DNA from: an uncultured Verrucomicrobiae bacterium
Lineage (GTDB): Bacteria > Verrucomicrobiota > Verrucomicrobiia > Limisphaerales > Palsa-1400
DNA length: 64,000 nt
Reading direction: 5' to 3'
Assembly (NCBI GenBank): GCA_963825315.1
Contig: CAWGST010000001.1
Location: forward strand, 24,778 to 88,777
The notes under the pieces were generated by a model, which made no database searches, was not told the origin of the DNA, and worked only from the letters and a program-made list of their open reading frames with translations. Within the stretch, counting starts at the first letter, position 1; each line of letters opens with the position of its first letter. The translations under genes and the position numbers were made by a program. This document shows, piece by piece, positions 8,869-21,140 of this stretch.

Positions 8869-8936
8869 CGCCCGGCCGGAGAGCTTCAATCTCCTTGCCC
8901 GGCGCCGGTTCTTTCCGCAATATCCACGCGTCTTCT

Positions 8937-11633
8937 ATGCGGCGACAATATCCGTTTCATTTGATCGAGCCAAAATGGCAGCGTTTTTGGGAGGCGCGGC
9001 AAACTTTTCGCGCCTGGAACCCCGGCGATTCCATTCCGCGGGAACATCCGTTCGCCAGGCGGCACGGCCTGCGGGGGAAGGTCCCGGCGGGACAGCTTCC
9101 GCGCAAGTTTTATATTCTCGACATGTTCCCCTATCCCTCCGGGGCGGGCCTGCATGTGGGCCATCCGGAAGGATACACCGCCACCGATATTTTGGCGCGC
9201 TATCGCCGCGCCCTGGGTTTCAATGTGCTGCATCCGATGGGTTGGGACGCCTTTGGACTGCCGGCCGAGCAATACGCCATCCGCACGGGACAGCATCCGC
9301 GGAAAACGACTGAAGAGAACATCGGCGTCTTCAAGCGCCAGATAAAATCGCTCGGCTTCAGTTATGATTGGAGCCGGGAAATCGATACGACAGACCCGAA
9401 ATATTGCAAATGGACGCAGTGGATTTTTCTTAAACTTTACCATTCGTGGTTCAATCCCGCCACGGCCAAAGCCGAGCCGATCCACACGCTGCCTTTGCCC
9501 GAGGGGTGTGATTCCGAGGAAGCGCAGCGGTCCTGGCGCGACGGCAAACGCCTGGCTTACGTGGCCGAGGCGCCGGTCTGGTGGTGCGAAGAACTCGGCA
9601 CCGTGCTCGCCAATGAAGAAGTGATCGATGGCAAAAGCGAGGTCGGCGGATTCCCCGTCGCGCGCAAACCCATGCGGCAATGGATGCTCCGCATCACAGC
9701 TTATGCGGAACGATTGCTGGCGGGGTTGGCAAAAATCGACTGGAGCGATTCGCTCAAGGAAATGCAGCGCAATTGGATTGGCCGCAGCGAAGGCGCGGAG
9801 GTTCAGTTTCACTTGGAGGATGATTCGGCGGCAATCCCGGTCTTTACGACCCGGCCCGACACTTTGTTCGGGGCCACTTACATGGTGCTTTCGCCCGACC
9901 ACAAACTGGTTGATGCCATCACCGCCCCGGCACAAAGAGCCGCCGTGGCTTCCTACCAGGCTGAAGTCGCCACCAAAAGCGACTTGGAGCGCACGGAAAC
10001 GGCCAGGGAAAAAACCGGTGTTTTCACCGGCGCTTTCGCGATTAATCCGGCCAACCGGGAAAGAATTCCGATCTGGATCGCGGATTACGTCCTCGCCACC
10101 TACGGCACCGGAGCCATCATGGCGGTGCCGGGCCACGATGAGCGCGACCTGGAATTTGCCCGGCAGTTCAAGCTGCCCATTCGCGTCGTGGTGCAAGCCC
10201 CTGAAGAACGGGACTCAATTGGTTTCACCGGCGATGGCACGAGCGTAAATTCGGATTTTATCACGGGCCTGCCCACGCCCGAGGCCAAAGAAAAAATCAC
10301 ACGCTGGCTGGAAGAACGAAAGTTGGGCCGCAAGACTGTCAATTACAAGCTGCGCGACTGGCTCTTCAGCCGGCAGCGCTATTGGGGCGAGCCGTTTCCG
10401 ATTATCTGGAAAGTGGACGCCGCCGGACACCTCCACCATGAGGCGCTGCCCGAATCTGCTCTTCCGGTGCAACCGCCGGACCTGACCGATTTCAAGCCCA
10501 CAGCCTCGGGAGAACCTCCTTTGGCGCGGGCCACGCAATGGGTCAATCTGCCTGACGGTTCCCGGCGCGAAACCAACACCATGCCGCAATGGGCCGGCAG
10601 TTGCTGGTATTACCTCCGCTTCATTGACGCCCGGAATGATAGCGCCCTTTGCGGGCCGGAACCGGAACATTATTGGATGGGGACAGGCAGCCCCGACGCC
10701 ACGCCGGGGGTTGATTTATACGTCGGCGGAATCGAACATGCCGTGCTGCATCTTCTCTATGCCCGATTCTGGCACAATGTCCTTTTCGATTTGGGCTGCG
10801 TCAGCACGCCCGAACCGTTTGCCAAACTGGTCAACCAGGGGCTGATCCTCGGCCAGGACGGGCAAAAAATGTCAAAGTCCCGCGGCAACGTCGTCAATCC
10901 GGACGATATTTTGGGCGAATACGGCGCGGACGCGTTTCGGCTCTACGAGATGTTCATGGGGCCGTTGGAAATGGTCAAGCCGTGGAACACCAAGGGCGTG
11001 GAAGGGGTGTATCGTTTTCTGGGGCGGGTCTGGCGATTGTTCGTGGACGAAAAGAGTGAAACAGAATTCGAGCAAAACCAGGCGGCAAGGGGAACGGAGG
11101 AGACCGGGGCGCTGGACCACATTCGACTGAGCGCGGCGATTCAGGACTGCGCCGCCACGCCCGCCCAGCTCAAAACGCTCCACGCCTGCATCAAGAAAGT
11201 CACCGAAGACCTCGACCACTTTGGCTTCAACACCGCCATTTCGGCCTTGATGATTTTTGTCAATGAAGCGATTGCCTGGGAAACCAAACCAAAGGGGATT
11301 TTGCGCGACTTCCTGATTCTGCTGCACCCGTTCGCTCCGCATCTGGCCGAGGAATTGCACGCCAAACTTTGCGCGCCAGGGGACGCCGCCGCGACGCTGG
11401 CCTATGAACCGTGGCCGAAATTCGACGCGCAACTCCTGGTGGAAGCGACCGTGGAAATACCGGTGCAGGTCAACGGCAAATTGCGGGACCGGATTGTCGT
11501 TCCGGCGGAAGCTTCCCCGGCCCAGATCGAAGCGGCGGCCCTGGCCAGCGACAAGGTCAAGGCGTTCATTGACGGGAAGGCGGTCAAAAAGGTCATTGTC
11601 ATTCCGAAAAGGCTGGTCAACATCGTGGTTTGA
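8937..11633 (+). CDS. leuS: Leucine--tRNA ligase
   Basis: [14 protein letters not shown] (HIGH motif), KMSKS, editing domain TTRPDT, C-terminal VQVNGKLR. Confidence 0.98.
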
Positions 11634-11668
11634 TCTTCCCGGTTTGGCAATTTTAGCCAGGATCACAA

Positions 11669-12195
11669 GATTGATAGATAGTCCGGAAAATCGGCAACAC
11701 GGTAACAAGTGTTGATAGTCAACGACTTAGCCGGTAACACGATCAGCTACAAACCAGTAACATGTTACTGCTTTTCGTTTTTCGCTGCCTCGTGAGCTGT
11801 ATAAAATTAGCCATCTGAAGAAGAAACGGCAAAAACGGGGGTCAAAATCATAAAATTGCCGCGAAGCATGGCCAGAAAGTTCATATTGATAGATAGAGGT
11901 TCGGAAAATCGGCAACACGGCAACAAGCCTTATTTTACAAGGGTTTCGTTGAGCTTTTCGGCTGGCAACACAGCGGCAACGGTTGGCAACATGTTGCTGG
12001 AGGCCACAGATTGGCGCAGATGGGCACAGATTTCCAGGTCTGGGATTAAGATTAGGATTAGGATTACGATTAGGATCGCAAGAAACGGAAGATTGATATG
12101 TGGGTCCGGAAAATCGGCAACACGGCAACAAATGTTGATAGTCAACGACTTAGCTGGCAACAAAATCGGCAACAGACCAGCAACAAGCCCGTTAC
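11669..12195 (+). repeat. Three copies (11669-11770, 11885-11999, 12091-12195) of a ~105-115-bp dispersed element containing GGCAACA iterons
   Basis: Shared head ATTGATA...GGAAAATCGGCAACACGG(C/T)AACAA followed by further GGCAACA/GGTAACA units. A fourth copy lies at 39506-39622. Confidence 0.85.
12044..12076 (+). repeat. (GATTAR)n hexamer microsatellite
   Basis: gattaagattaggattaggattacgattaggat. Same family at 38411-38490, 39272-39304 and 51976-52048. Confidence 0.85.
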
Positions 12196-12404
12196 ATTAA
12201 CGATAAAGCTGGCCTGGATTGGTTGGACGGTTTAATGACCATCGGTGTTTTAAGAATTTGACCACGGATTTCAGGATGGCCTGACAGATCATGGCAAACC
12301 GGGTAAGCCAACCACACCGCATGAAGAAGGCCAACCAGACTTTTTAACCACGAAAGACTCGAAAAACGCGAGCCTTGAAAGTAATGCGGTGGTGAAAATG
12401 GGGC

Positions 12405-12433
12405 TTGGCTGGACGTTTTGTTTCGGCTACAAT
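12405..12433 (+). promoter_or_regulatory. Putative sigma70 promoter of the cas9-cas1-cas2 operon
   Basis: TTGGCT(12405-12410)-N17-TACAAT(12428-12433), 34 nt upstream of the cas9 ATG. An 8-bp inverted repeat CGTTTTGT/ACAAAACG straddles the -10 box. Confidence 0.55.
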
Positions 12434-12467
12434 CTTGCCCGCTACACAAAACGAAGGGAAAAAGAAG

Positions 12468-15400
12468 ATGAATGCGGAAACTTCAAAGGCTGGCAAAACC
12501 GTCTGGGCTTTCGACTTGGGCAAAGGCTCCATCGGCGAAGCGGTGCGTTGCGGCGACAAATTTCTGCACAAAGCCTCGCTGCTCATCCCCGCCGAGTTTG
12601 CGGAAACCAAAACCGCCGCTGGACGACGCCGTATGTGGCGCACGCGGCAGGCACACAAGGCGCGCGAGCAATGGCTAGACGAGGTGATGCGCCAAGCGGG
12701 GATTGAAGTTCTCCATGGGCGCAATTACGACAAAATGGGTAAATGGAAAGTTGGCGAACCGGCGGATGAACGGCTGGAACGCGAGTTTGCCGAACCGGGC
12801 GACCCCACTTGTTATACGTCTTGCTTGCTTCGCATCAAACTTTTGCGCGGTGAAAAGCTTGAACCGTGGCAGATCTACAAGGCGCTTCATTCAGCGATCC
12901 AACGACGCGGTTACGATCCGAACATTCCTTGGAAAAACCGCAGCCAGCGCAAAGCCAAACCAGGAGATGCCAACGATGACGACGCCGGAACAGAAGCGCG
13001 GATGCAACAATTTGAGAAAGAATTGGAAGCAATGTCGCCCGGCAAGGATGAATATAAATTCTCGTGCTATTTTGATGCTTGGAAAATGGGATTGTGGAAT
13101 CCAGATAAACCAAAGGAATTAAAAGATCGCATTGATTGCCGCACGGAAAGCACCCGAAATCAAATTGTTCCTCGCAAATTGGTGGACAAGGAAATCCGGG
13201 CATTGGCCGAAGCTGCCGCGAAGCATTATCCCAAACTCAAAGGCCAACCGGACTATCTGCTCTATGGCCCGGCAAAAACTCCTTATGCCTCGTTCGACGC
13301 CAAGCTTCGAAAGCAGCACCACTTGAAGGAAGGCGGCGCAAATGACTGGCAAGGTGTGCTTGGCCAGAAGATTCCAAAATTCGAGAATCGGATTCTAAAT
13401 GATTGTGCCCTTATCCCTCGCCTTTATGTCTGCCGCAATCCAAGCCGCGAGGATTACAAGGATTTATCAGAGGACAAGCTTCTTCCTGCACAGGTTACGT
13501 TCCTGATGAAGTTGAAGAATATGCGCGTTGAGAAAAAGACGCCGCGTCAGCAATGCGGCCTGGCGGCAACCCAAATCAAAGAGATTTTTGACGAATACAA
13601 TCCAAAGCGAAAATATCATCTAACGCCCACGCAATGGAAGAATTGGTGCCTACACTTCGACGTTCTCCCGATTACAGACGCGGGCGAAAAAGGCAAAGAC
13701 GCGCCTAACGAAATCGATGGTCAAAAGAAGAAACAGGAAAGTGATGTCATCGAAGGGCCGACCGATAGCGGGCGCAGCAGGTTTTCGCGTCCAGCTTTAA
13801 GAATCCTCAGGGCATTGATTTTGAACGGGGAAAAACCATCAGCAATGCACAAAAAGTTGGTGGCGCGTGATTCGGCTCTGCTGGCGCAAATTGGCATGGA
13901 CATTCTGGACAAGCCGCCAATCAAAGAAAAGAAAGACGCGGCTGGGAATGTTGTTCGTAACTACGTTGAGCAACCGCGTCCTTGGCTTCTCGTTTCCGAT
14001 TTGTCGTTTCTTCTCGTCATGCGGAAAACGGGCGCGAAAGACGATTCATGGGAAGATTTGTTCATCCCAAATCAGCGTTTAGACCAAGTCGTTCAGGAAA
14101 TTTCCATTGCCGGTCAAAGCGGTAACGCACAAGCGCAGCGGAAACAGAGAGATAAAGCCATCCAAAAACTTATCGGGTCGCAAAATGATCCTAAAGTCCG
14201 CCATCGGCTCGCAACGTTTTGGGAACGGCTACAACTTCTGGAAGAAGCTCATGGCGTGCCGGACCAAGTTGTTTTGGAATTCATCCGGGAAGACTTCATG
14301 GGTGAGAAAGCAAAGAAGAAGTTGAAGGAGTTCCAAGACAAGCGCGCCACCGACCGAAAGAAAGCACGCGCGTATGGTGGTTTGAAATTTGAACTCTACG
14401 AGGCGCAAGGCGGCCTGTGCCTTTATGGAAAACAAGTAATCAAGGACGGTAAGTGCATCGCTCTTGAGAATGGCTTGCCATTGCCTAATACGGCGGGTTG
14501 GGATGAATTGGTCATTGACCACATTGTACCTCGCGAAGCTCCGTACAACGGGCCGGACTCGATGGTGAACTATGTTCTTACGACTCCAGAAGCCAACAAT
14601 GCAAAGGGTAAACGCACTCCGTTTGATTGGTTTCACCAAGATCGTTTGGAGCAATGGGACAGTTACAAAAACTTTGTCACACCGAAAATTGGGACGCTCG
14701 GCGGCAAGAAAGTTCAGCTTTTGACACGCGCTGATGCCGCAGCACTTGTCACGAAATATACTTCGCTGGCGGAAACCGCCTGGATTTCCAAGTTGGCTCA
14801 AACTTTGATTCGCTTGCACTTTGGCTGGCCTTTGGAACACGAACGCGGCAAGGAACGTTTAACTATTGTTCCCGGAGGATTGACCGGGCGGATCCGCAGG
14901 AAATATCTGTTGAATACGTTGCTGGATGAACGATTCAAGAATTTGCCGACCAATCAAATCCAACCGGAGAATGAGGAGGCGGCGGAAAAAGATCGCACGG
15001 ACAACCGACACCACGCGCTGGACGCGATGCTGATCAGTTTTTTCCCCGACTGGATGCGAAATCCGCACAAAGACGATTTCTTTCGTTTCCCCGTTCCTCT
15101 CGATAAGCCGTTTCCAGCAAAGCGCAACAAGCACGCCGTTCGCGAGTATTTCAGACGGTTGCTCGATGAGGTTTTGCCAGAAAACCTGTTTTTGGAAAAA
15201 GCAAAGCTCGCCGAAACCGCGTACGGACGCTCATTTCAGCCCGAAGAAGTCAGCGCAGATGGCGACTCTGTAAAATATAGAACCAGGAAGATAGCGTTGG
15301 CAGACTTGGCTTATCTGAAAGGCAAAGCAGATGCAGTCGCTTACGATCACAAGCAAGCACGTCGCGTGGCAAGCGGGATCGTAAATCAAGAGATTCGCAA

Positions 15401-16529
15401 GCATGTGTGCGAGTTTCTAAAATCCAATCCGTCGGAAGCTGACTGGCAAGCGTTTTGTAAAAAATTTGAGGACGAAGCTCAAAAGGCGAAACGCACCAAT
15501 GCAATCAAAGTTGAAGTTCGTCTCGTCGTTGAAATCCGCACCCATCGCAAGTCAGTGAAAGAAATGGCATACGAAAAAGGCAATTCGCGGGAATACGATG
15601 TCGAATACGCGCGTGGGAACGTGGATGAAATCGTGGAGGATTTGCCGGAGCAAATATCCATCAAGGCTAAACTCCGCGAATTCTTTGCAGGTAATCCAAC
15701 CGAGAATCAGTGGAAAGCATTTCATGAATCTCTGAAGCCGATTGACCGTTGCAAATTAAAAGCCGAGCCGGACGAAACGGGCAAGAAAACCAAGGCTCGC
15801 ACGGTGAAGTTTATGGTTTTCGCTCATCGCCCAATCCCGATGAAATTCAACCTTGAAAAGGTTCACGGGCAAATTGACAAGATTTGCGACGAGTACATCC
15901 GCCAACGGCTACGCGCCTTCGTAAATCAATCTCCGCCGCCAGATCAAACTGGTTGGAACACGTTCTGCGAATCATTTCGCCAAGAACGAAGAGACGACAC
16001 CGGGAATCTGCTCAAAGACGTTGCGGGAAATGTGCTTTATGGGGTGCGCATCAAGAAAGTCCGGGTGATAGATGGAGGCCCTGACGAGTTTAAGGATTTC
16101 TCCAAAGACGGAACTGGCACGTTCTACAAAAACAAGAAGGAGCACAAAGGACAGTTCGTTTTCCTCGTGGATGACGGCTCATCTAACGGCAAAGTCAATG
16201 CGCGCCCCGTTTATGTCTTCGAATCTGTGCGGAAAGTTCGAAGCGAAGTCGAAGCTATAGACAAGCTAAAACGCGTCGTCGGATATTTTCAATCCGGTTG
16301 CGCCATCGAAATCAGTCAGCCCTTGTTAAAGGAGGGCTACGGCTTTGTCGTCTTGAAAGATGAAAAGAAAAAGCGAGAAAAGGCAGAATCGCCTCTCGCT
16401 CCGGGCAAATTCTTATTGAAGACAATTATCACCAAATCGCGCGCCGTTGAAATGGAAACGACCGCCGGCATTGTCATCAATTCCACTCTCGATTCTCTGA
16501 TTAAGGCGGGATTGAAGCGAGTTTCATGA
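12468..16529 (+). CDS. cas9: Type II (II-C-like) CRISPR endonuclease Cas9, ~1353 aa, catalytic residues intact
   Basis: RuvC-I VWAFDLGKGSIG, Arg-rich bridge helix RRRMWRTRQAHKARE, QRRGY, RuvC-II VVLEFIRE, HNH IDHIVP...DSMVNYVL...ANNAKGKRTPFDW, RuvC-III RHHALDAML. Followed by cas1, cas2 and an array. ATG 12468 has a purine-rich RBS. Confidence 0.96.
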   Translation: MNAETSKAGKTVWAFDLGKGSIGEAVRCGDKFLHKASLLIPAEFAETKTAAGRRRMWRTRQAHKAREQWLDEVMRQAGIEVLHGRNYDKMGKWKVGEPADERLEREFAEPGDPTCYTSCLLRIKLLRGEKLEPWQIYKALHSAIQRRGYDPNIPWKNRSQRKAKPGDANDDDAGTEARMQQFEKELEAMSPGKDEYKFSCYFDAWKMGLWNPDKPKELKDRIDCRTESTRNQIVPRKLVDKEIRALAEAAAKHYPKLKGQPDYLLYGPAKTPYASFDAKLRKQHHLKEGGANDWQGVLGQKIPKFENRILNDCALIPRLYVCRNPSREDYKDLSEDKLLPAQVTFLMKLKNMRVEKKTPRQQCGLAATQIKEIFDEYNPKRKYHLTPTQWKNWCLHFDVLPITDAGEKGKDAPNEIDGQKKKQESDVIEGPTDSGRSRFSRPALRILRALILNGEKPSAMHKKLVARDSALLAQIGMDILDKPPIKEKKDAAGNVVRNYVEQPRPWLLVSDLSFLLVMRKTGAKDDSWEDLFIPNQRLDQVVQEISIAGQSGNAQAQRKQRDKAIQKLIGSQNDPKVRHRLATFWERLQLLEEAHGVPDQVVLEFIREDFMGEKAKKKLKEFQDKRATDRKKARAYGGLKFELYEAQGGLCLYGKQVIKDGKCIALENGLPLPNTAGWDELVIDHIVPREAPYNGPDSMVNYVLTTPEANNAKGKRTPFDWFHQDRLEQWDSYKNFVTPKIGTLGGKKVQLLTRADAAALVTKYTSLAETAWISKLAQTLIRLHFGWPLEHERGKERLTIVPGGLTGRIRRKYLLNTLLDERFKNLPTNQIQPENEEAAEKDRTDNRHHALDAMLISFFPDWMRNPHKDDFFRFPVPLDKPFPAKRNKHAVREYFRRLLDEVLPENLFLEKAKLAETAYGRSFQPEEVSADGDSVKYRTRKIALADLAYLKGKADAVAYDHKQARRVASGIVNQEIRKHVCEFLKSNPSEADWQAFCKKFEDEAQKAKRTNAIKVEVRLVVEIRTHRKSVKEMAYEKGNSREYDVEYARGNVDEIVEDLPEQISIKAKLREFFAGNPTENQWKAFHESLKPIDRCKLKAEPDETGKKTKARTVKFMVFAHRPIPMKFNLEKVHGQIDKICDEYIRQRLRAFVNQSPPPDQTGWNTFCESFRQERRDDTGNLLKDVAGNVLYGVRIKKVRVIDGGPDEFKDFSKDGTGTFYKNKKEHKGQFVFLVDDGSSNGKVNARPVYVFESVRKVRSEVEAIDKLKRVVGYFQSGCAIEISQPLLKEGYGFVVLKDEKKKREKAESPLAPGKFLLKTIITKSRAVEMETTAGIVINSTLDSLIKAGLKRVS

Positions 16530-16551
16530 AGCCGGAAACCATCTTGAAATT

Positions 16552-17436
16552 ATGAGCCACCACATTCTTCATGTTCTCAAACACGGTTGCGTGTTGTCCA
16601 AAGACCGGGGCTTTATCGTTTGTCGCGGCGAGGACAAAAGCGAGAACCGCATTCCGCATGAGGATTTGCGGGCGGTTATCATCGCGGCGCGCGGCGTCAC
16701 GCTGACGTCCAGTTTCATTTCCGCCGTGCTGGAAACGGACGGGATCATTTTGCATTGCAATGAAAGTTACCGGCCTTGCGGTGTCACCGCGCCATTGGGC
16801 CGGGTGATTGATAATAAGGCTTTTTTGCATCAAGCGGAACGTCCGGTGCGGTTGAACAATCGCCTCTGGCAGCATCTCATTCGGGGAAAAACGCTGAACC
16901 AGTTGAAGGTGCTGAAAAAGCGGCAGTTGAAATCGCCGCATCTCGAACTGGCGGTGAAGAAAGATATTTTCGACGAGGGCAATTGCGCCCGGCGTTATTG
17001 GCAGTTGTATTTTCCCTCGATTGGCTGGGTTTCCTCGTCACGCGACCGAAAGCAGGACAACGCGCCCAATCAGATGTTGAATTACGGTTACGCCGTGCTT
17101 GGCGCGCTTTGCCATCGCGGTTTGTTGATTCATGGATTATCGCCGTTGCTCGGCGTGAAACATACGACGCGCTATCACGCCGACCCCCTGGTTTATGACA
17201 TTATGGAGCCGTACCGCCCGGCGGTGGATTTGATGATGGCGGAATTCATGGTGGGCGAGGATATCAGCATGAAGGCGTGGTGCAAAAAGGTCGGCAACGA
17301 ACTGCGCGAGCAGCGGGTCGAGCATGACCGATATTCGCTCAAGCTCATGGATGCCATTGACGCCTCGGCTTCTTCGCTGGCCCGGAGTTATGCGGAAAAA
17401 TCGTCCGAACTGTTTTGGGTGCCAGAGTTGTCGTGA
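16552..17436 (+). CDS. cas1: Type II CRISPR-associated endonuclease Cas1
   Basis: EGNCARRYW, NQMLNYGYAVL, GVKH, LVYDIMEPYRP. Confidence 0.96.
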   Translation: MSHHILHVLKHGCVLSKDRGFIVCRGEDKSENRIPHEDLRAVIIAARGVTLTSSFISAVLETDGIILHCNESYRPCGVTAPLGRVIDNKAFLHQAERPVRLNNRLWQHLIRGKTLNQLKVLKKRQLKSPHLELAVKKDIFDEGNCARRYWQLYFPSIGWVSSSRDRKQDNAPNQMLNYGYAVLGALCHRGLLIHGLSPLLGVKHTTRYHADPLVYDIMEPYRPAVDLMMAEFMVGEDISMKAWCKKVGNELREQRVEHDRYSLKLMDAIDASASSLARSYAEKSSELFWVPELS

Positions 17437-17792
17437 GCCAAACCGAGAAAAAAAGTCCGTTTCGTATGGGGTGGATATTGGCCATGTTTGACCTGCCGGT
17501 GATGACGGACAAAGAGCGGAAGGCCGCCACCCGATTTCGGAATGACCTGCTCGATAATGGTTATTTGATGATCCAGTTTTCAGTGTATGCCCGCCCGTGC
17601 GTCAGTTACGAACAAATGGACACGCACATCGCCCGCATGAAAGGGCTGATTCCGACGGCGGGAAATGTTCGGCTGATGTTTATGACGGATGAACAATGGA
17701 AAAAAAGTTATACGGTGATCGGTGAAAATTACAGAGATGACAAACGCGCCAAAGACCCGACGATTCCCAGCCAAGTGGACTTTTGGGAGTAA
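17433..17792 (+). CDS. cas2: CRISPR-associated endoribonuclease Cas2
   Basis: WILAMFDLPV...FRNDLLDNGYLMIQFSVYAR. GTG start overlaps the cas1 TGA (GTGA); alternative start at 17466. No csn2 or cas4 present. Confidence 0.95.
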   Translation: MSQTEKKSPFRMGWILAMFDLPVMTDKERKAATRFRNDLLDNGYLMIQFSVYARPCVSYEQMDTHIARMKGLIPTAGNVRLMFMTDEQWKKSYTVIGENYRDDKRAKDPTIPSQVDFWE

Positions 17793-17793
17793 C

Positions 17794-17834
17794 GGCGGCG
17801 TTGAAACGTGCTATGCAGTGGTTTCAACGCCGCC
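17794..17834. terminator. 14-bp perfect GC-rich hairpin right after the cas2 stop (tracrRNA nexus/3' stem and/or bidirectional terminator)
   Basis: GGCGGCGTTGAAAC(17794-17807)/GTTTCAACGCCGCC(17821-17834). No clear U-tract. Confidence 0.6.
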
Positions 17835-17871
17835 TAATCAGTTAAGACTTCACCCCCCGGAGAAGTCGCAT
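17794..17871 (-). ncRNA. Putative tracrRNA (3' end undefined)
   Basis: Minus strand reads AUGCGACUUCUCCGGGGGGUGAAGUCUUAAC-UGAUUA-GGCGGCGUUGAAAC...GUUUCAACGCCGCC. There are 23 contiguous nt (17846-17868) complementary to the crRNA repeat, followed by a 14-bp hairpin. Confidence 0.8.
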
Positions 17872-17874
17872 CAA

Positions 17875-17902
17875 ATCATACCGCACCAGGCACTTCCGTC
17901 AA
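17875..17902 (-). promoter_or_regulatory. Putative tracrRNA promoter
   Basis: Minus strand TTGACG-N16-TATGAT, with the predicted start just before the anti-repeat core. Confidence 0.65.
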
Positions 17903-17906
17903 GCCC

Positions 17907-19523
17907 ATTATAGCCGACTTCTCCGGGGGGTGAAGTCAAAACGGTTGTGGTGTCAACAAATGTCACCGTGACATTATAGCCGACTTCTCCGGGGGGTGAA
18001 GTCAAAACTGGGCACGTTCTTTTGGTGCTTTAGCTGCAATTATAGCCGACTTCTCCGGGGGGTGAAGTCAAAACTATGGCGCTACCGGACGTAGTTCGGT
18101 ATCGATTATAGCCGACTTCTCCGGGGGGTGAAGTCAAAACAACTGGGCCATTGTGAAAGTCACCAACGCCATTATAGCCGACTTCTCCGGGGGGTGAAGT
18201 CAAAACACTGGGCAATTGTGAAAGTCACCAACGCCTATTATAGCCGACTTCTCCGGGGGGTGAAGTCAAAACTAGAACCTTTCGTTTACCGAACTAAATT
18301 AATTATAGCCGACTTCTCCGGGGGGTGAAGTCAAAACACCAAAGTTTCGAGGAGCTGCGGATGTGGATTATAGCCGACTTCTCCGGGGGGTGAAGTCAAA
18401 ACCCGCCCGTCGCGTCGTAGGGCATGATCTTGATTATAGCCGACTTCTCCGGGGGGTGAAGTCAAAACCCGTGCCGATGAATTACCTGCTTGTCTGCCAT
18501 TATAGCCGACTTCTCCGGGGGGTGAAGTCAAAACCTGCGCCAGTGTAATGCCCTGCCCCTCGCCATTATAGCCGACTTCTCCGGGGGGTGAAGTCAAAAC
18601 ACGCGATTTGATTTGATCGGCGTTTGGGCCATTATAGCCGACTTCTCCGGGGGGTGAAGTCAAAACTGATGTAGAGTGCTTGTGCTAAGCTTTCGTATTA
18701 TAGCCGACTTCTCCGGGGGGTGAAGTCAAAACAAGAAGTTGTTGCAGCTGGTTGCGTTTCCTATTATAGCCGACTTCTCCGGGGGGTGAAGTCAAAACAC
18801 ATCCTCCTCGTCGTTAAAAAGTTCACCAATTATAGCCGACTTCTCCGGGGGGTGAAGTCAAAACCTTAACCTCTGTCACCTTCGCGGTGTGGAAATTATA
18901 GCCGACTTCTCCGGGGGGTGAAGTCAAAACACAAGATCGCGGCAGACAAGCTCGTTGAGCATTATAGCCGACTTCTCCGGGGGGTGAAGTCAAAACAACG
19001 ACACCCAGCGCCAGATGATCATTGACATTATAGCCGACTTCTCCGGGGGGTGAAGTCAAAACTTTTCAGTCATGCTGCCTCCGCGCGTTCCATTATAGCC
19101 GACTTCTCCGGGGGGTGAAGTCAAAACTGGAGGCGGCGAAGGGCATCCAGGCCGGTCATTATAGCCGACTTCTCCGGGGGGTGAAGTCAAAACAGTCGTC
19201 GGTGTGCAGAACGGACATTCCGGATTATAGCCGACTTCTCCGGGGGGTGAAGTCAAAACCCTGGTCATTTCCTCAATCAATTTATAACCATTATAGCCGA
19301 CTTCTCCGGGGGGTGAAGTCAAAACGCGCTGGGTGTCTTCAAGCACTTTATAATTATTATAGCCGACTTCTCCGGGGGGTGAAGTCAAAACCGAAATCCG
19401 CTCACGCAACAGCATTTGAAGATTATAGCCGACTTCTCCGGGGGGTGAAGTCAAAACCACAGCAGCTCATCCACCTTCAGCCCCTTCATTATAGCCGACT
19501 TCTCCGGGGGGTGAAGTCAAAAC
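17907..19523 (-). CRISPR. CRISPR array with 25 identical 36-nt repeats (crRNA sense GTTTTGACTTCACCCCCCGGAGAAGTCGGCTATAAT) and 24 spacers of 29-30 nt
   Basis: Repeats counted directly from 17907 to 19488. Orientation inferred from the 5' GTTTT end, the 3' TATAAT (-10 box in each repeat, as in II-C arrays) and the anti-repeat strand. Confidence 0.98.
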
Positions 19524-19605
19524 GGGCGGCGGGTGAATCGCTACGCATTACAATCAGGTTGTTTTTGCATTCTCACCAGCGTAGCGATTCACCCGCCGCC
19601 CGTTT
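19520..19605. other. Perfect 27-bp inverted repeat (32-nt loop) abutting the distal CRISPR repeat
   Basis: AAACGGGCGGCGGGTGAATCGCTACGC(19520-19546) / GCGTAGCGATTCACCCGCCGCCCGTTT(19579-19605). Confidence 0.9.
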
Positions 19606-19792
19606 CAAATTTCCCCATCCGAAAACTGAAAACATAAGAAGCCCTCTATAAAAAATAATTTTCGCGTAATTCGGCTGTTTCGCGGTTAAGAATCCTGATT
19701 GGCACTCCTCATGCCGAAGAAAGGCTGAAGCAAAATTCGTGCGCTTTGTCTTTCGTGGTGCCGTGAATCGTCGACCGCCGCTTCCGGGCAAA

Positions 19793-20033
19793 GGTGTGTT
19801 TGGCGAGACGCCAAACACGGCGCGCGGGACGCACGCGCTCCCCGTGCTGGATCGAGTTGGGGTTCGACGGAATGATTCCCTCACCCGGCCTGCGGCCACC
19901 CTCTCCCCGCTTCGCGGGGCGAGGGAATCGGACTCTGCACGGACGGACAAAGAGCGACAAATCCGTCTCCGTTGCGCTTTGGCGCGACAAATGACCAGAT
20001 CGAGTTGGGGTTCGACGGAGTCTCACCCTACCG
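19793..20033. repeat. Cluster of REP-like palindromic elements with a 22-bp direct repeat
   Basis: GTGTTTGGCGAGACGCCAAACAC...GCGCGGGACGCACGCGCTCCCC; CCCTCACCCGGCC...CCCTCTCCCCGCTTCGCGGGGCGAGGG; GATCGAGTTGGGGTTCGACGGA at 19850-19871 and 19998-20019, the second copy running on to CCCTACC. Confidence 0.65.
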
Positions 20034-20042
20034 GTGGTCGGC

Positions 20043-21140
20043 TCATGTCGAGTGATCAATGGCCGGCTGCTGCTGAGTCAGGCAATGCAGCGTGCCAAAG
20101 CCCAGCACTAAATCCACCGCGTGTATCCCCACCACAGGCCGGTCCCGGAACAAATCGCCCAGGATGCCCAGGGCGATACGGTCGTTCGGGTCGTTGAAGG
20201 TGGGCACAATGACCGCCGCATTGCTGATGTAAAAATTGGCGTAGCTGGCCGGCAAACGGTAGCCGTCGTAAAAAATCGGCGCGGGCATGGGCAGCGCCAC
20301 TACTTGGATTTTTGAGCCGTCTTCCAAGCGCAGGCCCTCCAGGCGTTCCCGGTTCCCGGCCAGCGGCTGGTAATTGACGTCCTTGGGATTGCTCTCCTGC
20401 GCCAGCACCACGGTGGCCGGGTTGACAAACCGGCAGATGTCATCCACATGGCCGTGGGTATCGTCGCCCACCACCCCGCCCCCCAGCCAAAGCACATTGG
20501 TGACGCCGAGATAGCGCTGGAGCACCAATTCAATTTCCTTCCGGCCCAGACCGGGATTGCGCGCCTGGGTTTTCTGATCCAGCAGGCACTCCTCGGTCGT
20601 CAGGAGAGTGCCCCGGCCATTGACATCAATGGCGCCGCCTTCGATGACAAAATCCCGGCCCTGGCACTGGGCGTTGAACAGACGTTTGCCCAAGCGCCCG
20701 GCCGCAATTTCAGGCACCTTGCGGTCTTGCTGCCAATCCGGGTATTTGGCCCAGGCATTGAAATGAAAATGAACAAACGCGGTTTCCGGATTCTTTCCGC
20801 CGCGCCGGACACAGATCGGCCCGCTGTCGCGGGTCCAGCCGCGGTTGGTGGGGTGGATGATGAATTGGACGCGGGAGACATCGGCGTGGGCCTGGGTCAG
20901 GATGCGGCGGGCCGCGGTTTCGCCGGTCTTGGAATTGACGAACAGCCGGACAATTTCGCCGGGGGCGATTTTGCGGACCATTTCGCCGTAAACCCAGCGA
21001 ATGGCGCCCAGTTTGCGGGGCCAGTCGGCGGGATTGTGCGGCCAAGCCAGCCAGGTGGCTTCATGCCGCTCCCATTCGGCGGGCATGGCAAATCCAAGGG
21101 AGGCCGGAGTGCGTGAAGTCGTGGATTTTTTTCCAGTCAT
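20043..21140 (-). CDS. aguA: Agmatine deiminase family protein
   Basis: MPAEWERH, WTRDSGP, EGGAIDVNG, DDTHGHVDD, ASYANFYI, GFGTLHCLTQQQP. Start uncertain (21143/21140/21086). Confidence 0.92.
   Translation of the reverse strand: MTGKKSTTSRTPASLGFAMPAEWERHEATWLAWPHNPADWPRKLGAIRWVYGEMVRKIAPGEIVRLFVNSKTGETAARRILTQAHADVSRVQFIIHPTNRGWTRDSGPICVRRGGKNPETAFVHFHFNAWAKYPDWQQDRKVPEIAAGRLGKRLFNAQCQGRDFVIEGGAIDVNGRGTLLTTEECLLDQKTQARNPGLGRKEIELVLQRYLGVTNVLWLGGGVVGDDTHGHVDDICRFVNPATVVLAQESNPKDVNYQPLAGNRERLEGLRLEDGSKIQVVALPMPAPIFYDGYRLPASYANFYISNAAVIVPTFNDPNDRIALGILGDLFRDRPVVGIHAVDLVLGFGTLHCLTQQQPAIDHST

Follow-up and report, generated by a model that had tools for sequence, protein, structure and literature searches.

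Type II-C CRISPR-Cas operons are defined by cas9, cas1 and cas2 without csn2 or cas4, accompanied by a CRISPR array and a trans-activating CRISPR RNA (tracrRNA), and the evolution of Cas9 is usually described through insertions and through divergence of the REC and WED regions. In the solved type II-C Cas9s, RuvC-III is followed by a phosphate-lock loop, one WED domain of 84-100 amino acids and the protospacer adjacent motif (PAM)-interacting (PI) domain. The published domain map of BlCas9 places RuvC-III at residues 670-806, the phosphate-lock loop at 807-820, WED at 821-920 and PI at 921-1092 (PMC11222456), and that of CdCas9 places the loop at 808-820, WED at 821-904 and PI at 905-1084 (PMC6488586). 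The WED domain of GeoCas9 is described as about 100 amino acids with four helices and two sheets, recognising the repeat:anti-repeat duplex and the PAM-side double-stranded DNA (PMC11658890), and WED structure is reported to vary among Cas9 orthologues (PMC11222456). Here we analyse the cas9 gene of a CRISPR locus in a window of 64,000 nucleotides (the whole stretch of DNA under study) from an uncultured bacterium of the Limisphaerales, Verrucomicrobiota (contig CAWGST010000001.1). At the position of the single WED domain this Cas9 carries three diverged tandem units, U1, U2 and U3. We consider it fairly probable that they represent an old tandem triplication of a WED module in a II-C Cas9 clade, in which U3 is the canonical unit and U1 and U2 are likely DNA-side additions.

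In type II-C Cas9, the WED domain was recently shown to govern how fast DNA is unwound and how efficiently the enzyme edits (PMC11658890), and it is a target of broad-spectrum anti-CRISPRs (PMC12855784). In titles and abstracts of openly accessible papers, we found no Cas9 described as carrying more than one WED domain, whether by duplication or otherwise, and no account of a Limisphaerales Cas9. Compared with BlCas9 (8x5v), Nme1Cas9, Nme2Cas9, GeoCas9 and CdCas9, the window Cas9 has the same cas9-cas1-cas2-tracrRNA-array layout, the same RuvC and HNH motifs and the same order of RuvC-III, linker, module at the WED position and beta-rich C-terminus. It differs in having three copies of 86-92 amino acids each where they have one, and sequence similarity to the solved enzymes is detectable solely in HNH and RuvC-III. 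A preliminary description of this stretch, made from the letters alone, had allowed that characterised Cas9s might already carry three units; each of the solved II-C enzymes compared has a single WED domain.

Results

Three tandem units follow RuvC-III

The gene and the parts of its product that bear on the repeat are as follows, with residues counted from the TTG at 12405.

12468-16529, plus strand: cas9, 1353 amino acids from the likely ATG, in an open reading frame (ORF) that is open from TTG 12405 (ORF list and translation)
15213-15269, plus strand: linker beginning ETAYG, at the phosphate-lock-loop position, about 12 amino acids longer than in one-unit relatives (alignments)
15270-15527, plus strand: U1, first WED-like module, residues 956-1041 (hmmsearch E 2e-34)
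15528-15797, plus strand: U2, second WED-like module, residues 1042-1131 (hmmsearch E 9e-32)
15798-16067, plus strand: U3, third module and counterpart of the canonical unit, residues 1132-1221, ending with the IKKVRV strand
16068-16526, plus strand: beta-rich C-terminal part, presumed PI domain, mostly strands in the AlphaFold2 (AF2) model and collinear with relatives

The phosphate-lock loop was located by position from the BlCas9 and CdCas9 domain maps, and the name PI follows the domain order of solved Cas9s. The preliminary description had set the units at the WED position, which agrees with the order of RuvC-III, phosphate-lock loop, WED and PI in the solved II-C enzymes. It had also proposed three homologous, in-frame, diverged units after RuvC-III, and the peptides on which it drew lie where it put them: RKIALADLAYLKG at residue 961 (nucleotide 15285), RKSVKEMAYEKG at 1048 and RTVKFMVF at 1132, with CESF ending at nucleotide 15977 and the motifs RHHALDA, ETAYG and RIKKVRV at residues 868, 937 and 1215. 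Smith-Waterman comparison scored 75 for U1-U2 (z 12.1), 57 for U1-U3 (z 8.9) and 63 for U2-U3 (z 10.0), and none of these scores was reached in any of 2000 shuffles. Profile comparison by hhalign, using unit alignments cut from seven close homologues with a complete C-terminus, gave probabilities of 96.1% (E 3e-9), 95.3% (E 2e-8) and 88.2% (E 3e-6) for the same pairs, so that the profile check for an internal repeat which the preliminary description had called for came out significant, at 88-96% between units. A profile built on 57 single units of relatives matched U1, U2 and U3 at 98.9%, 98.2% and 99.1%. Adjacent units are thus significantly homologous by profile methods, as in a tandem internal domain repeat, and share merely 16-32% identity.

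Each module is 86-92 amino acids long, which replaces the earlier figure of 60-65, and is built of an opening strand (VKYRTRKIALADLAY and VEIRTHRKSVKEMAY, degenerate in U3), helices and a closing strand (AIKVEVRLV for U1, RTVKFMVFA for U2 and IKKVRV for U3). The IKKVR strand that the preliminary description had regarded as the usual one following the units is present at residue 1215, where it forms the end of U3 and not a separate strand. Relatives with a single unit have the consensus IVQR.xL..LA.KP....K..FDL.Y..KQ...IRD..I...L..F....P.E..W..FC..F.L..KDG..G.RV..V.V.VG. The last helix of this unit, NP.E..W..FC..F, is weakly resembled by a REC-lobe motif, LTPTQWKNWCLHF (about 13580-13640; residues about 395-415 of P0001), which is also found in homologues; the resemblance is not significant (E 0.07-1 by hidden Markov model, HMM) and is possibly due to chance.

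Distribution and age of the expansion

A word-indexed search with residues 850-1374 scored 7998 candidates, of which 112 proteins reached E <= 0.001. The whole query is spanned by seven (P0002-P0008, 67-100% identity), and the others cover 30-58% of it. An exhaustive search of 1.84 billion representatives returned 140 matches at E <= 0.001, most of them in two separate stretches, with the middle of the query left unmatched. When units were counted in 113 proteins with a first unit HMM, three were found in eight proteins (P0001-P0008), two in two, one in 101 and none in two. A further HMM built from 60 units (A4) was applied to 305 gathered sequences and detected one unit in 248, none in 36 (mostly fragments), two in 12 and three in nine, these nine being the window clade, with double counting wherever the set contained both a protein and its locus. 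Taking one genome per species gave 264 relatives, of which the best 80 were kept; among the 61 of these with a complete, stop-free C-terminus, 59 had one unit, L042 had two detectable units and L001, a Limisphaerales metagenome-assembled genome that is the closest genome record (82% identical), had three. A single unit is therefore the norm, as the preliminary description had supposed, in 248/305 sequences and in 59/61 complete C-termini. The count in the nearest homologues, which it had recommended, showed that all seven whose C-terminus is complete (67-100% identity) retain the three units, and the frame is undisrupted in each. The expansion has, on this evidence, apparently become fixed in a clade of Verrucomicrobiota-type Cas9s that is so far uncharacterised.

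One-unit Verrucomicrobiota relatives such as L008, L003 and L017 (about 1000-1100 amino acids) are 30-50% identical to the window Cas9 outside the units, have a near-identical CRISPR repeat and tracrRNA layout, and carry a single unit homologous to U1, U2 and U3. They differ in length after RHHALDA, with about 280 amino acids compared to 507 in the window Cas9. Two proteins, P0048 (residues 831-982) and P0137 (residues 809-965), carry two tandem units each. They lie in other parts of the Cas9 tree, and these smaller expansions therefore arose separately; the module seems prone to duplication.

Collinearity across the expanded region extends to two deeper Cas9 groups, group B (L042, P0172, P0113, P0168, P0177 and P0195) and group C (L002 and P0187). 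Compared with the C-terminal 595 amino acids of the window Cas9, L002, P0187, L042, P0172 and P0113 each gave a single collinear high-scoring segment pair at 25-29% identity, and a multiple alignment set their segments beneath U1, U2 and U3. Members of both groups (P0168, 1596 amino acids; P0177, 1569; L042; L002; P0187, 1488) are collinear with the window Cas9 and have recognisable U1 and U3 (96-99%); they differ by further insertions and by being merely 25-29% identical to it. Profile tests supported all three units in group C (96.0, 85.5 and 98.7%) and U1 (98.3%) and U3 (98.2%) in group B. The collinearity of groups this distant implies that the expansion is old, in line with the age that the preliminary description had ascribed to the copies. 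Group B proteins (P0168, P0177, P0172, P0113, P0195 and L042; up to 1596 amino acids) have, in addition, a charged insertion of about 60 amino acids after RHHALDA and before the first unit, and a further 40-60 amino acids within U3 ahead of its closing strand.

In a weakly resolved tree of 52 units (88 columns), all 11 U3 sequences joined 19 single units (SH-aLRT 87), the U1 sequences of the window clade grouped with four of the six group B U1 sequences (86), and the position labels needed 5 changes compared with a shuffled mean of 28. U3 also has the highest identity of the three to single units (mean 28.5%, maximum 44%). From these comparisons U3 is best regarded as the counterpart of the canonical single unit, and U1 and U2 as added paralogues. 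A FastTree phylogeny of 66 Cas9s, computed from the part up to RuvC-III without the units, recovered the window clade and group B as sisters (support 97); within this grouping P0204 is truncated inside the expansion and P0202 is collinear with weak unit matches.

Structure and identity of the units

The AF2 model of residues 780-1374 (595 amino acids) had a mean predicted local distance difference test (pLDDT) score of 77.9 and a predicted template modelling (pTM) score of 0.39. Each unit was modelled as strands and three to four helices, and the pLDDT of the blocks lay mostly at 80-96. The best Foldseek matches of this model in the PDB were Cas9 chains, led by BlCas9 (8x5v, E 6e-5) and followed by Nme2, Geo and Nme1 (probability 0.99-1.0); global TM scores to Cas9 chains were 0.16-0.19, as expected for a multi-domain model at pTM 0.39. 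U3 modelled alone scored higher (pLDDT 88.9, pTM 0.73). Its full-length superpositions (91-92 columns, rmsd < 5 A) involved Nme1Cas9 chains only and were weak (TMq 0.40-0.44, E 0.7-3), and they come without residue ranges for the aligned part of Nme1Cas9. Matches of U3 to a Rap1 DNA-binding domain, a heparinase and a vault protein were dismissed as noise, all having E > 0.1 by Foldseek.

The three-unit block as a whole occupies the position between phosphate-lock loop and PI that characterises a WED domain, and single units do so in part. The units also have the size (86, 91 and 92 amino acids, within the known 84-100) and the mixed alpha/beta secondary structure of strands and three to four helices. 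By position, size and secondary structure we infer that they are WED domains.

Selection and charge

Nei-Gojobori estimates of the ratio of non-synonymous to synonymous substitution (dN/dS) between the window and L001 (1346 codons) were 0.287 for U1, 0.069 for U2 and 0.070 for U3, compared with 0.093 for the N-terminal 750 codons, 0.042 for RuvC-III, 0.070 for the C-terminal part and 0.089 for the whole gene; these are rough values from one sequence pair with dS of 0.7-1.6, near saturation. All three units thus appear to be under purifying selection, and the earlier suggestion that the copies are retained by selection accords with the values of 0.29, 0.07 and 0.07. Mean pairwise identity among six full-length close homologues was 56% in U1, 73% in U2, 76% in U3 and 75% in the N-terminal part. 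Net charge, over seven homologues, was +3 to +9 in U1, +1 to +4 in U2 and +2 to +5 in U3, and the 57 single units averaged +4.6 (standard deviation 2.3). U1 is therefore the basic, fastest-evolving unit, while U2 is nearly neutral and strongly conserved.

CRISPR locus and guide RNA

The genes and elements following cas9 are listed here.

16552-17436, plus strand: cas1 (Pfam Cas_Cas1, E 9e-30)
17415-17792, plus strand: cas2 (Pfam CRISPR_Cas2, E 1.4e-15)
17780-17877, minus strand: tracrRNA candidate, with the anti-repeat at about 17841-17877 followed by a 14-bp GC-rich hairpin at 17794-17834
17907-19523, minus strand: CRISPR array of 25 repeats of 36 nt with spacers of 29-30 nt, oriented from the anti-repeat

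The order of cas9, cas1, cas2, tracrRNA candidate and 25-repeat array, with no additional ORF between cas2 and the array in the ORF list, gives the locus a type II-C layout, and the locus looks complete. Catalytic motifs, operon composition and fold similarity to solved Cas9s all agree with a type II-C effector. AFDLGKGSIG (residue 35), VVLEFIRED (622), IDHIVP (704) and RHHALDA (868) correspond to RuvC-I, RuvC-II, HNH and RuvC-III, which upholds the earlier statement that the nuclease residues are intact, and a Pfam scan detected RuvC_III at 787-880 (E 3e-9) and HNH_4 at 702-740 (E 9e-5). Among solved structures, phmmer reached solely Cas9 HNH constructs (11 distinct sequences, best E 1.2e-5), which indicates that the window Cas9 is distant from all solved Cas9s. 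The database protein P0002 (1353 amino acids) is identical to it. The upstream neighbour of cas9 is leuS (8895-11633), and past the array lies a PAD_porph-family gene (Pfam) on the minus strand.

The repeat core has a sole inverted copy, at 17846-17867, and the tracrRNA candidate containing it folds with an energy of -43.8 kcal/mol (z -4.7). On the minus strand the order is terminal repeat, about 31 nt, anti-repeat, short linker and the 14-bp hairpin, which abuts the cas2 stop. In this tandem order (17780-17942, minus strand), with 31 spacer-like nucleotides separating the terminal repeat from the anti-repeat, a transcript reading through the array would form a natural single-guide-like hairpin. 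The window hairpin at 17794-17834 has no T-run behind it, unlike those of most relatives. Its loop (CCACTGCCTAGCACG-like) is conserved in many loci (L003-L079 and the window), with a variable stem, and this suggests a sequence-specific contact. Three repeat-to-repeat spacings in the array are 65 nt and not 66 (18246-18376 and 19036-19101), corresponding to 29-nt spacers. Directly beside the outermost repeat distal to cas2 stands an inverted repeat (19524-19606) with 23 perfectly paired bp and a 32-nt loop, which may be a leader element or terminator. Rfam microRNA-family matches from a scan of 11500-20500 fell below gathering scores, over the repeat/anti-repeat and leader-side hairpins, and were judged spurious.

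Arrays were detected in 49 of 81 sources. Repeats are closely similar in one-unit and three-unit loci, that of the one-unit locus L017 differing from the repeat of the window by 3 nt. A TTAAC-like element directly follows the anti-repeat in 32 of 36 analysable loci, and a T-run starts 50-56 nt past the anti-repeat in 22 loci, comprising three of four three-unit and 19 of 32 one-unit loci. Across these loci, no covariation of repeat or tracrRNA layout with unit number was found. The tracrRNA, as predicted, does look minimal (anti-repeat plus one hairpin), and equally so in one-unit relatives.

Discussion

The comparisons above are consistent with an ancestral single module (84-100 amino acids, lying between phosphate-lock loop and PI, in which three to four helices stand between an opening and a closing strand) having been copied head to tail to give U1-U2-U3. 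In such a protein U3 would most likely keep the canonical WED role, in which it forms the PAM-duplex cleft with PI and contacts the repeat:anti-repeat duplex. The added copies, U1 and U2, would extend the area that binds nucleic acid on the PAM side of the target. U1 may be a basic, fast-evolving backbone binder and U2 a conserved connector that positions it, with steadier DNA binding or bending and faster unwinding as the proposed net effect. Since repeats and tracrRNA layout are alike in one-unit and three-unit loci, a DNA-side rather than a guide-RNA role is suggested, and by analogy we think it most likely that the extra copies act through DNA-side contacts. The analogy is iGeoCas9, in which added contacts between WED and the DNA backbone accelerate unwinding and relax PAM recognition (PMC11658890). 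This laboratory-evolved enzyme is changed in the same domain, and its faster unwinding is the effect that the added modules might have; it differs in carrying point mutations in one WED domain and not added copies of the domain. A bolder version, which we regard as doubtful, would make the multiplied wedge a DNA-gripping arm that speeds PAM-side capture and unwinding as a natural iGeoCas9 effect, with the fast-evolving outermost copy, U1, perhaps also a sacrificial or variable surface against anti-CRISPRs that target WED.

Several results weigh against an old triplication of WED modules with U3 as the canonical copy. The U3 model had no PDB match at E <= 0.001, unit profiles of three rows (A2) and 60 rows (A4) matched no Cas9 chain among solved structures, and Pfam found no WED or PI family in the unit region of the window Cas9 and 41 relatives at E up to 10. 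A 41-row profile of the C-terminus likewise reached solely the RuvC-III part of 15 Cas9 sequences, together with a sub-threshold stretch of CbCas9 (1150-1217). As sequence links the unit to no curated WED family and to no solved Cas9, and the structure search gave no significant match for U3, the units are assigned to WED by position. Position is itself ambiguous as to which unit holds the canonical site, as the phosphate-lock loop adjoins U1 and PI adjoins U3, so that the chain must leave the PAM-proximal site and return to it. The selection estimates are subject to the near-saturation noted above. As to age, the middle segment of group B (137-166 amino acids) is unrecognisable, with hhalign probabilities of 25.6% to single units and 5.7% to the window U2, and P0187 falls outside the window clade in the Cas9 tree, in a poorly resolved placement. 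In view of this degenerate segment and this placement, a single old origin is likely but short of proof for the window clade and group B, and it may extend to group C.

A different possibility is that the extra modules bind guide RNA, for example an unprocessed 36-bp repeat:anti-repeat duplex or the single tracrRNA hairpin, and so offset a short tracrRNA. This would be in keeping with the solved II-C WED domains, which recognise the repeat:anti-repeat duplex and stem loop 1 (PMC11222456, PMC6488586), with the single hairpin that follows the anti-repeat in our tracrRNA candidate, and with the basic character of U1. The repeat and tracrRNA layout are, however, common to one-unit relatives, and the RNA does not co-vary with unit number; we therefore think it unlikely. 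The preliminary description had suggested such an offset, and the tracrRNA does look short, but the idea of compensation is weakened by one-unit relatives whose tracrRNA is equally minimal, which shifts the odds to a DNA-side or protein-side role. Its two other proposals, a changed PAM read-out and an anti-CRISPR decoy, are speculative, and of our results the faster evolution of U1 is the one that bears on the decoy. A protein-side role would make the extra modules an interaction surface, whether a decoy or shield against anti-CRISPRs aimed at the WED/PI cleft, a place where Cas1-Cas2 or some other partner docks, or a means of dimerisation. This region is indeed a target of anti-CRISPRs: AcrIIA19 binds the WED domain, and AcrIIC5 sits between WED and PI. 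The roughly four-fold faster evolution of U1 (dN/dS 0.29 vs 0.07; identity 56% vs 73-76%) would suit a contested surface, and U2 is nearly neutral yet highly conserved. No anti-CRISPR or partner gene was identified in this analysis, however, and U1 is still under purifying selection, with relaxed constraint fitting its rate equally well, which leaves a protein-interaction surface unlikely in our judgement.

That the duplicated modules are structural ballast, tolerated without a function of their own, might be read from U1 as the least conserved part of the protein and from the middle segment of group B, degenerated past recognition. Against this, every unit has a dN/dS well under 1, and the constraint on U2 equals that on the nuclease core; moreover, the expansion has been kept across lineages merely 25-29% identical, and in the seven complete homologues of the window clade the frame is intact. 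We consider ballast highly improbable. Chance resemblance or an assembly artefact, to which we assign next to no probability, would find a hint only in a whole-protein self-BLAST search for repeats that returned nothing but the diagonal, a result that we attribute to the program's suppression of alignments lying within the self-hit and do not count as evidence against a repeat. Both are refuted by the shuffles, of which none in 2000 reached the observed scores, by profile probabilities of 88-99%, and by the recurrence of the architecture in independently assembled proteins and in L001, with copies only 16-32% identical to one another.

The old triplication of a WED module, with U3 in the canonical role, is thus the reading that we prefer. 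Three selected copies beside one-copy relatives with the same guide RNA make a ready-made comparison, which could show the effect of extra WED surface on PAM-side binding, R-loop kinetics and sensitivity to inhibitors. The locus also provides a clear natural case of internal domain duplication in the evolution of Cas9.

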